From Escherichia coli (lineage in GTDB: Bacteria > Pseudomonadota > Gammaproteobacteria > Enterobacterales > Enterobacteriaceae), in assembly GCF_003334255.1 (NCBI RefSeq), contig NZ_QOWU01000049.1: 43,106 nt of DNA; one strand, 5' to 3'. How positions within the stretch are numbered: the first letter of the stretch is position 1; every line of letters begins with the position of its first letter. Below, one piece after another: positions 20,002-20,292 of the stretch. The notes under the pieces are model-generated. The model was given only the letters and a program-made list of their open reading frames with translations, did not search any database and was not told the DNA's origin. The translations under genes and the position numbers were made by a program.

Positions 20002-20107
20002 AAAAAAAAGCCCATCGTGGGAGATGGGCAAAGACTACACACAGCAATTCGTTGTTTCACTCAGGGGATTTCCATGCTTATAAATCAATATGTTGATTTA
20101 TAACCGT
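20002..20107 (-). ncRNA. rprA: RprA small regulatory RNA (Hfq-dependent activator of rpoS translation)
   Basis: Reverse complement of nt 20002-20107 reads ACGGTTATAAATCAACATATTGATTTATAAGCATGGAAATCCCCTGAGTGAAACAACGAATTGCTGTGTGTAGTCTTTGCCCATCTCCCACGATGGGCTTTTTTTT, which I recognise as RprA, including its terminator hairpin GCCCATC...GATGGGC plus U-tract. Confidence 0.9.
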
Positions 20108-20264
20108 GAGCTAATAGTAGGCATACGGACTTTTTGCGTCGATCAGATTCGTCTCATTAGTTTAAAAACTGTAAAGAATTTGCGACAGGTACTACCAGCT
20201 GAATGGCGGTAAGCAGGAAAATATGGGGAAGAGCAAGCAAATATCAATTAGCGGTGATTAACAA

Positions 20265-20284
20265 TCAGGCGGCAGAGCCGCCTG
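20265..20284 (-). terminator. Hairpin immediately 3' of ydiK
   Basis: Inverted repeat tcaggcggc-aga-gccgcctga about 8 nt past the ydiK stop; the following run on the minus strand is only moderately T-rich. Confidence 0.4.
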
Positions 20285-20292
20285 ATGAGAAA

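Follow-up and report, generated by a model that had tools for sequence, protein, structure and literature searches.

The window analysed here, a 43,106-nt stretch of Escherichia coli DNA, carries the small RNA gene rprA on its minus strand at 20107..20002. The gene specifies a primary transcript of 106 nt whose first nucleotide (+1) is the A at 20107, as defined by a match to Rfam family RF00034 and by identity to K-12 b4431. The gene strand is ACGGTTATAAATCAACATATTGATTTATAAGCATGGAAATCCCCTGAGTGAAACAACGAATTGCTGTGTGTAGTCTTTGCCCATCTCCCACGATGGGCTTTTTTTT; from 20107 to 20002 it runs ACGGTTATAAATC ... GCCCATCTCCCACGATGGGC TTTTTTTT. When the whole window was searched with the Rfam 15 covariance models at their gathering thresholds, two matches were obtained, RprA and rydB. 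The RprA match, at 20000-20107 (-), scores 118.5 bits (gathering threshold, 70; E = 1.1e-16) and spans the full model from position 1 to 108 without truncation. The initial annotation had read this strand as RprA from its 5' end to the terminator hairpin and U-tract, and had named a covariance-model search and a comparison with K-12 rprA as ways of checking it. Both bear the reading out: the Rfam match is full-length and falls on the proposed gene, the terminator hairpin occupies 20029-20010 and is followed by T8, and the RNA and promoter are 100% identical to those of K-12.

The K-12 gene (1770372..1770477) corresponds to window positions 20107..20002, with 106 of 106 nt identical and an identical promoter. 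Across the 441 nt from 19860 to 20300 (-) there is one mismatch to K-12 MG1655, at 20257, where the gene strand has T and K-12 has C; this position precedes +1 by 150 nt and falls where the sequence is not conserved. From -149 through the 3' end of rprA there is no mismatch. A 501-nt query around the locus found matches in 5,424 of 5,426 complete E. coli genomes, and in 5,411 of the 5,426 at least 80% of the query was covered at 95-100% identity. The RefSeq features beneath these matches are 'sRNA RprA' and ydiK. In principle the initial annotation is right that an ORF-based approach would miss the gene, yet rprA is already annotated by standard pipelines. The rprA of the window is an ordinary, well-studied and routinely annotated gene, and nothing about its own locus is new.

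The surrounding DNA is likewise close to K-12. Positions 77-42866 of the window are collinear with MG1655 1790402..1747613, with 11 substitutions, no indels and 99.974% identity. Eight of the 11 substitutions change a G:C pair in K-12 to A:T in the window, and three proteins are altered relative to K-12 (SufD P223S, YdiM G337E and YdiN V372I); a search of 77-42866 for premature stop codons found none. The ends of the window are insertion sequences: bases 1-76 come from the end of an IS1 inside selO, and bases 42867-43106 from that of an IS3-family (IS1203-like) element inside ydhS, so that both selO and ydhS are truncated. The IS1/selO junction is absent from all complete E. coli RefSeq genomes. 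The window has the look of an entire draft contig that ends in repeats at both sides and belongs to a very near relative of K-12.

Upstream of rprA lies ydiK (20293-21405, minus strand, with its stop codon at 20293-20295), and downstream lies ydiL (19508-19864, minus strand); the YdiK and YdiL proteins encoded in the window are identical to their K-12 counterparts. The gene order in both strain G1/2 and K-12 MG1655 is ydiJ (on the opposite strand), ydiK, rprA, ydiL and ydiM. The placement of the small RNA between ydiL and ydiK by the initial annotation is thus correct, and the interval that it delimited, 20002-20292, consists of the gene at 20002-20107 and all 185 nt of the spacer that separates it from the ydiK stop codon; its left end is the 3' end of the K-12 annotation. 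The PGAP label for the gene, 'antisense sRNA RprA', and the RefSeq feature key 'antisense_RNA' could be taken to mean that RprA acts in cis on an opposite-strand transcript of the same locus. No opposite-strand gene is annotated between ydiK and ydiL in either K-12 or strain G1/2, however, and the opposite-strand ORFs at rprA are short, mechanical calls. 'Antisense' is a label applied generically to base-pairing sRNAs, and the genes that RprA is known to target are unlinked to it. We consider a cis-antisense role extremely improbable.

The promoter of rprA is readily recognized within the spacer. An RcsB box, TGAGACGAATCTGA, lies at 20143..20156 (-), corresponding to -49..-36 from +1, and matches exactly the RcsB homodimer consensus TN(G/A)GAN4TC(T/C)NA, which was taken from PMC7913699; this consensus occurs four times in the window, against 1.46 matches expected by chance. 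The box directly abuts a weak -35-like hexamer, TCGACG (20137..20142, 4/6 matches), which is followed after a 17-nt spacer by the -10 hexamer TACTAT (20114..20119; -12..-7), both elements on the minus strand and read by eye. With 8/12 matches, below the cut-off of 9/12, this promoter was missed by a sigma-70 consensus scan; such a score fits an activator-dependent promoter. RcsB has been crystallized with a fragment of the Salmonella rprA promoter spanning -53..-33, CTATTGAGACGAATCTGATCG (PMC7913699), and the corresponding positions of the window, 20160-20140, read CTAATGAGACGAATCTGATCG, with the same 14-mer box and the same numbering. The initial annotation had expected the RcsB-dependent promoter in the roughly 180 nt between rprA and ydiK. 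An exact box at 20156-20143 supports a putative RcsB promoter there, but the promoter fills only the proximal ~53 nt of the spacer. A second sigma-70-like site, TTGATA-16/18-CATATT/TATTTT at 20247-20218 (-), scores 9/12 and lies about 110-140 nt upstream of +1. It is probably non-functional, since the number of such sites is near that expected by chance (2 found, 1.1 expected) and the stretch is not conserved across species.

As an independent test of the promoter, its conservation was assessed in a comparison set of at least 120 Enterobacterales genome stretches containing the exact 23-nt 3' seed of RprA. Among the matches listed, a strict RcsB box lies 85-130 nt upstream of the seed in 107 of the 114 loci with enough flanking sequence, and in these 107 its offset is mostly -108 from the seed, as it is in the window. 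In the same 107 loci the GAC of the -35 element and four positions of the -10 element (T1, A2, A5 and T6, giving TAnnAT) are each at least 95% conserved. These three elements are the conserved islands of the spacer, and the distal ~130 nt are unconserved. The result is a clean phylogenetic footprint of the rprA promoter, in which nothing of the spacer apart from the box, the -35 GAC and the -10 is conserved among more than 100 species. Seven loci are exceptions with respect to the box: two have it further upstream, three belong to Edwardsiella and two are not chromosomal rprA. In the first two, from Symbiopectobacterium (L098) and a genome labelled Serratia marcescens (L120), the box lies 148-174 nt upstream of the seed, a distance that implies a longer RNA with an extra 5' domain. 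In the Edwardsiella loci (L028, L064 and L109) the 3' seed and the terminator are retained, but the 5' half is different and a strict RcsB box is lacking.

Gene context is conserved unequally on the two sides of rprA. Among the matches listed, 84 of the 87 loci with enough flank have ydiK upstream, on the same strand and no more than 700 nt away, and ydiL lies downstream in 8 of 90 loci, all in Escherichia and Citrobacter; in about half of the remaining loci the downstream gene is ppsA. This linkage, together with the co-orientation of ydiK and its distance of only 185 nt, is what would be expected if RprA were derived from the 3' untranslated region of the ydiK transcript by read-through and processing. 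A 10-bp hairpin at 20264..20286 (-), just past the ydiK stop codon, bears on this idea in both directions. The terminator scan did not call it and its T-tail is weak (TTGTTAAT), so that some read-through is conceivable. It is nevertheless very stable, at -18.2 kcal/mol (z = -6.55), and none of 200 shuffled sequences folds as well; it is probably the ydiK terminator and, if so, would insulate rprA from read-through. Further against a ydiK-derived RNA, 107 of 114 loci among the matches listed have the RcsB box, the -35 GAC and the -10 at constant spacing from the annotated 5' end, the 5' end of K-12 rprA maps to 20107, and the numbering of the Salmonella promoter fragment agrees exactly with a start at that position. 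An origin of RprA from the ydiK transcript is therefore very unlikely, and the evidence favours a gene transcribed from its own promoter.

The predicted minimum-free-energy structure of RprA comprises a 5' stem-loop, a long open centre, a small hairpin and a terminator. The A/U-rich 5' stem-loop (nt 3-32; 20076..20105, minus strand) appears in both the minimum-free-energy and the centroid fold. The central region (nt 32-74; 20034..20076, minus strand) is mostly single-stranded and, from the predicted duplex described below and from the literature, holds the rpoS-pairing sequence. The small hairpin of the minimum-free-energy fold occupies nt 60-74 on the gene strand, and the terminator scan placed a Rho-independent terminator at 20002..20029 (-), made up of a 7-bp G+C-rich stem (20029-20010) and a U8 tail (20009-20002). 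The processed form of RprA, as known from PMC3465796 and PMC9262595, would correspond to the last 47 nt (nt 60-106; 20002..20048, minus strand), which contain the seed (20048-20026), the small hairpin and the terminator. The whole RNA folds only modestly better than its shuffled versions (z = -1.99). Scores of this order are usual among sRNAs whose centre is long and unstructured.

Covariation was examined in an alignment of 46 species drawn from the matches listed. Two helices emerge in the consensus fold, one formed by the seven inner pairs of the 5' stem-loop and the other by the stem of the terminator. Compensatory changes were seen at 5 of 19 pairs. Three of these five pairs are in the 5' helix, one of them changed in 13 sequences, and two are in the terminator stem. 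The small hairpin is invariant in the alignment because the loci were fetched by an exact 23-mer, and its invariance is thus no evidence of covariation. Two open reading frames raise the question of whether the locus encodes a small protein, with the RNA match incidental or the RNA serving a dual function. The ORF listing contains a GTG-initiated frame of 49 aa on the same strand as rprA (19911-20060), and a second frame within RprA has four codons, AUG-GAA-AUC-CCC-UGA. The longer frame crosses the terminator hairpin and U-tract into unconserved DNA and, as it runs through the terminator, cannot lie on the terminated transcript. The AUG of the shorter frame is absent from homologues in Erwinia, Pantoea, Serratia and Dickeya, in which the RNA is nonetheless conserved. 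Conservation tracks the helices and seeds rather than codons, and a coding function is exceedingly improbable.

Taken together, these data lead us to conclude, with a probability of about 0.97, that 20002-20107 (-) is E. coli rprA, a free-standing gene for a 106-nt Hfq-dependent trans-acting sRNA under an RcsB-activated promoter. The identity and anatomy of the gene, its promoter elements, its conservation and the covariation of two of its helices are observations of the present analysis. Its dependence on RcsB and Hfq, its targets and its processing would follow by analogy from experiments in K-12 and Salmonella, carried out on identical or near-identical sequence.

On this basis, transcription would start at 20107 from the weak sigma-70 promoter and would require a dimer of phosphorylated RcsB bound to the box at -49..-36, so that the level of RprA would report envelope stress sensed by the Rcs phosphorelay. 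CpxR is an activator of rprA according to statements in the literature, and LrhA represses RprA (PMC5861431); our literature search for mapped CpxR or LrhA sites at rprA found none, only statements of activation or repression. 

RprA pairs with the 5' leader of rpoS, opens an inhibitory structure and exposes the Shine-Dalgarno site to ribosomes (PMC3708529); that article cites experimental proof of this pairing on the identical K-12 sequence. As rpoS lies outside the window, the K-12 leader was used in our predictions. A comparison of full-length RprA with the whole leader predicted a 100-nt duplex, which is unrealistic and did not outperform the duplexes of shuffled sequences; this comparison was replaced by a windowed duplex scan of RprA nt 31-78. 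The top-ranked duplex lies at -129..-93 from the AUG, at -28.1 kcal/mol, an energy that is not significant in itself, as 27 of 200 shuffled cores attain it somewhere in the leader. In the window's strain, the centre of RprA would pair with the upstream strand of the inhibitory hairpin and free the rpoS ribosome-binding site, a form of positive control.

RprA also acts negatively. It represses csgD and ydaM/dgcM (PMC3465796), hdeD and others (PMC5861431) and narP (PMC9262595), and pairing at or near translation starts would account for repression of csgD, dgcM (ydaM), hdeD, narP and other mRNAs. A processed species, RprA60-105, coexists with the primary transcript (PMC3465796), and the form termed RprAproc, 'the last 47 nt', is active on narP (PMC9262595). 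Cleavage of RprA would accordingly be expected to yield a stable 47-nt 3' fragment that retains regulatory activity. With a K-12-like background, an intact rprA and an intact Rcs-responsive promoter, the pathway from Rcs through RprA to RpoS and curli should function in this strain as it does in K-12.

The second Rfam match in the window is the sRNA rydB (RF00118), at 25711-25771 (+) with 81.6 bits; the gene as annotated in K-12 corresponds to 25699-25766. Positions 25695-25708, TGAGATTATTCTTA, match the RcsB-box consensus perfectly and overlap the 5' end annotated for rydB. This match could be due to chance, given the four matches in the window against 1.46 expected, and it sits at the rydB start site, whereas the rprA box occupies the activating position -49..-36.

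Two unusual arrangements of rprA itself were encountered in other Enterobacterales. Phytobacter massiliensis has two seed matches 8,067 nt apart on the same contig (L051:873-895 and L052:1236-1258): a complete rprA with its RcsB box and, about 8 kb downstream, a partial copy comprising the last ~68 nt, which follows unrelated DNA. This pattern seems to be that expected if an integrative element had entered rprA at its 3' end and duplicated that end. In Klebsiella, several records of 110-144 kb filed as plasmids (K. pneumoniae pCMC432M_P3, L005; H40-H45) contain a ydiJ-ydiK-rprA-ppsA segment, in which RprA attains a full score of 113.5 bits. We rejected the idea of a mobile rprA on Klebsiella plasmids, as these segments are of ordinary chromosomal type; they reflect either the capture of chromosomal DNA or faults in assembly or classification.

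The 3' seed of RprA is also found outside bacterial chromosomes. The exact 23-mer (window 20048-20026), together with a terminator, is present in at least 120 IMG/VR viral contigs (L129-L248; L249-L334). In 117 of these the chromosomal RprA centre and ydiK are absent, and the loci are not chromosomal rprA; 110 of the 117 lack the RcsB box as well. Among the matches listed, the phage seed loci have many unrelated 5' contexts, which form six groups of at least seven contigs and a number of smaller ones. An RprA-like element that scores 63.4 bits is present in P1-like phage-plasmids of Enterobacter and E. coli (L006/L007:2947-3049), and the lambdoid phages Eeyore, LLS and Flotzy carry another (L128:2494-2592) that scores 41.2 bits; both scores are below the threshold of 70, and the elements are therefore not members of RF00034. 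No other Rfam family matched them with an E value of 0.1 or less. The phage and phage-plasmid elements resemble RprA in the 3' ~47 nt only, with no RcsB box and no ydiK nearby, and the part that the phage modules have in common with RprA is its processed form. Our literature searches found no paper that quotes the seed sequence or describes RprA-like elements in phages or phage-plasmids.

In the loci examined, the genomic position of these modules is consistent. All eight representative loci have the module on the same strand as a gene for a CI/LexA-type repressor and 0.1-1.2 kb downstream of it, an assignment that was checked against PHROGs in three of the eight (phrog_4); early genes such as that for an exonuclease follow downstream of the module. 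The module of phage Eeyore is likewise downstream of and co-oriented with a CI-type repressor gene. We take this position to correspond to rexAB/t_imm on the map of phage lambda. An independent search anchored on the 5' scaffold hairpin of the largest phage module group gave 119 matches, of which 37 have the exact seed, about 45 have the core GCTGTGTGTAGTCTT with a different terminator and about 25 have an unrelated tail. The 15-nt core thus persists with two different terminators. In one of the P1-like phage-plasmids, a stretch about 90 nt downstream of the RprA-like element (L006:3130-3210, plus strand; GTGGTGAATTGCAGC...AACCAGAAGATAAGCGCCTGGCGCCAC) resembles by eye the 5' context of the L245-type module and is without the RprA seed, which hints at modular scaffolds with exchangeable 3' seeds.

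We also considered whether the phage copies of the seed might be attP cores for integration into rprA, and rejected this for the nine loci examined, because the module follows a CI-type repressor gene and the only integrase identified, in L152 (one of the loci with ORFs compared against PHROGs), comes about 3.4 kb after the module. The presence of the module in P1-like phage-plasmids further disfavours an attP function. We take phage-plasmids of this type to be maintained as plasmids without integrating. The modules may instead be mere terminators. A more far-reaching possibility, which we advance tentatively and rate at somewhat below even odds, is suggested by the arrangement of the sequences: temperate phages and P1-like phage-plasmids may have copied the RprA seed as a regulatory 'word' and placed it, joined to a phage terminator, at the 3' end of the CI-repressor (immunity) transcription unit, and lysogens would thus make a constitutive, Rcs-independent RprA-like sRNA that taps part of the host RprA regulon. 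If true, this would be a case of phages copying the seed of a core host sRNA and keeping it beside their repressor genes.

Comparison with known systems places the chromosomal gene firmly within its family. E. coli K-12 RprA has the same 106-nt sequence, the same promoter and the same neighbours, ydiK and ydiL, with no difference in gene or promoter. Salmonella enterica RprA shares the box 14-mer TGAGACGAATCTGA, its distance from +1 and the 3' seed, and differs by a few substitutions in the flank of the box (CTATTGAGAC in Salmonella and CTAATGAGAC in the window); in S. arizonae (L088) there are a few substitutions in the centre of the RNA relative to the window. The target ricI, on pSLT, is specific to Salmonella RprA (PMC5861431, PMC9262595). 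DsrA and ArcZ are, like RprA, Hfq-dependent activators of rpoS whose pairing with the leader opens the inhibitory hairpin, but they are unrelated to it in sequence and are encoded at other loci (PMC3708529). They also differ in the signals to which they respond, which are low temperature for DsrA and aerobic or anaerobic conditions for ArcZ, in contrast to the Rcs system for RprA (PMC3708529). For the phage modules the closest parallel is with prophage-encoded base-pairing sRNAs such as DicF, which acts on host mRNAs (PMC5069750). Like DicF, the modules with the RprA seed are short, end in a terminator, reside in temperate phages and, by analogy, could act on host mRNAs; unlike DicF, they carry the exact seed of a core-genome sRNA.
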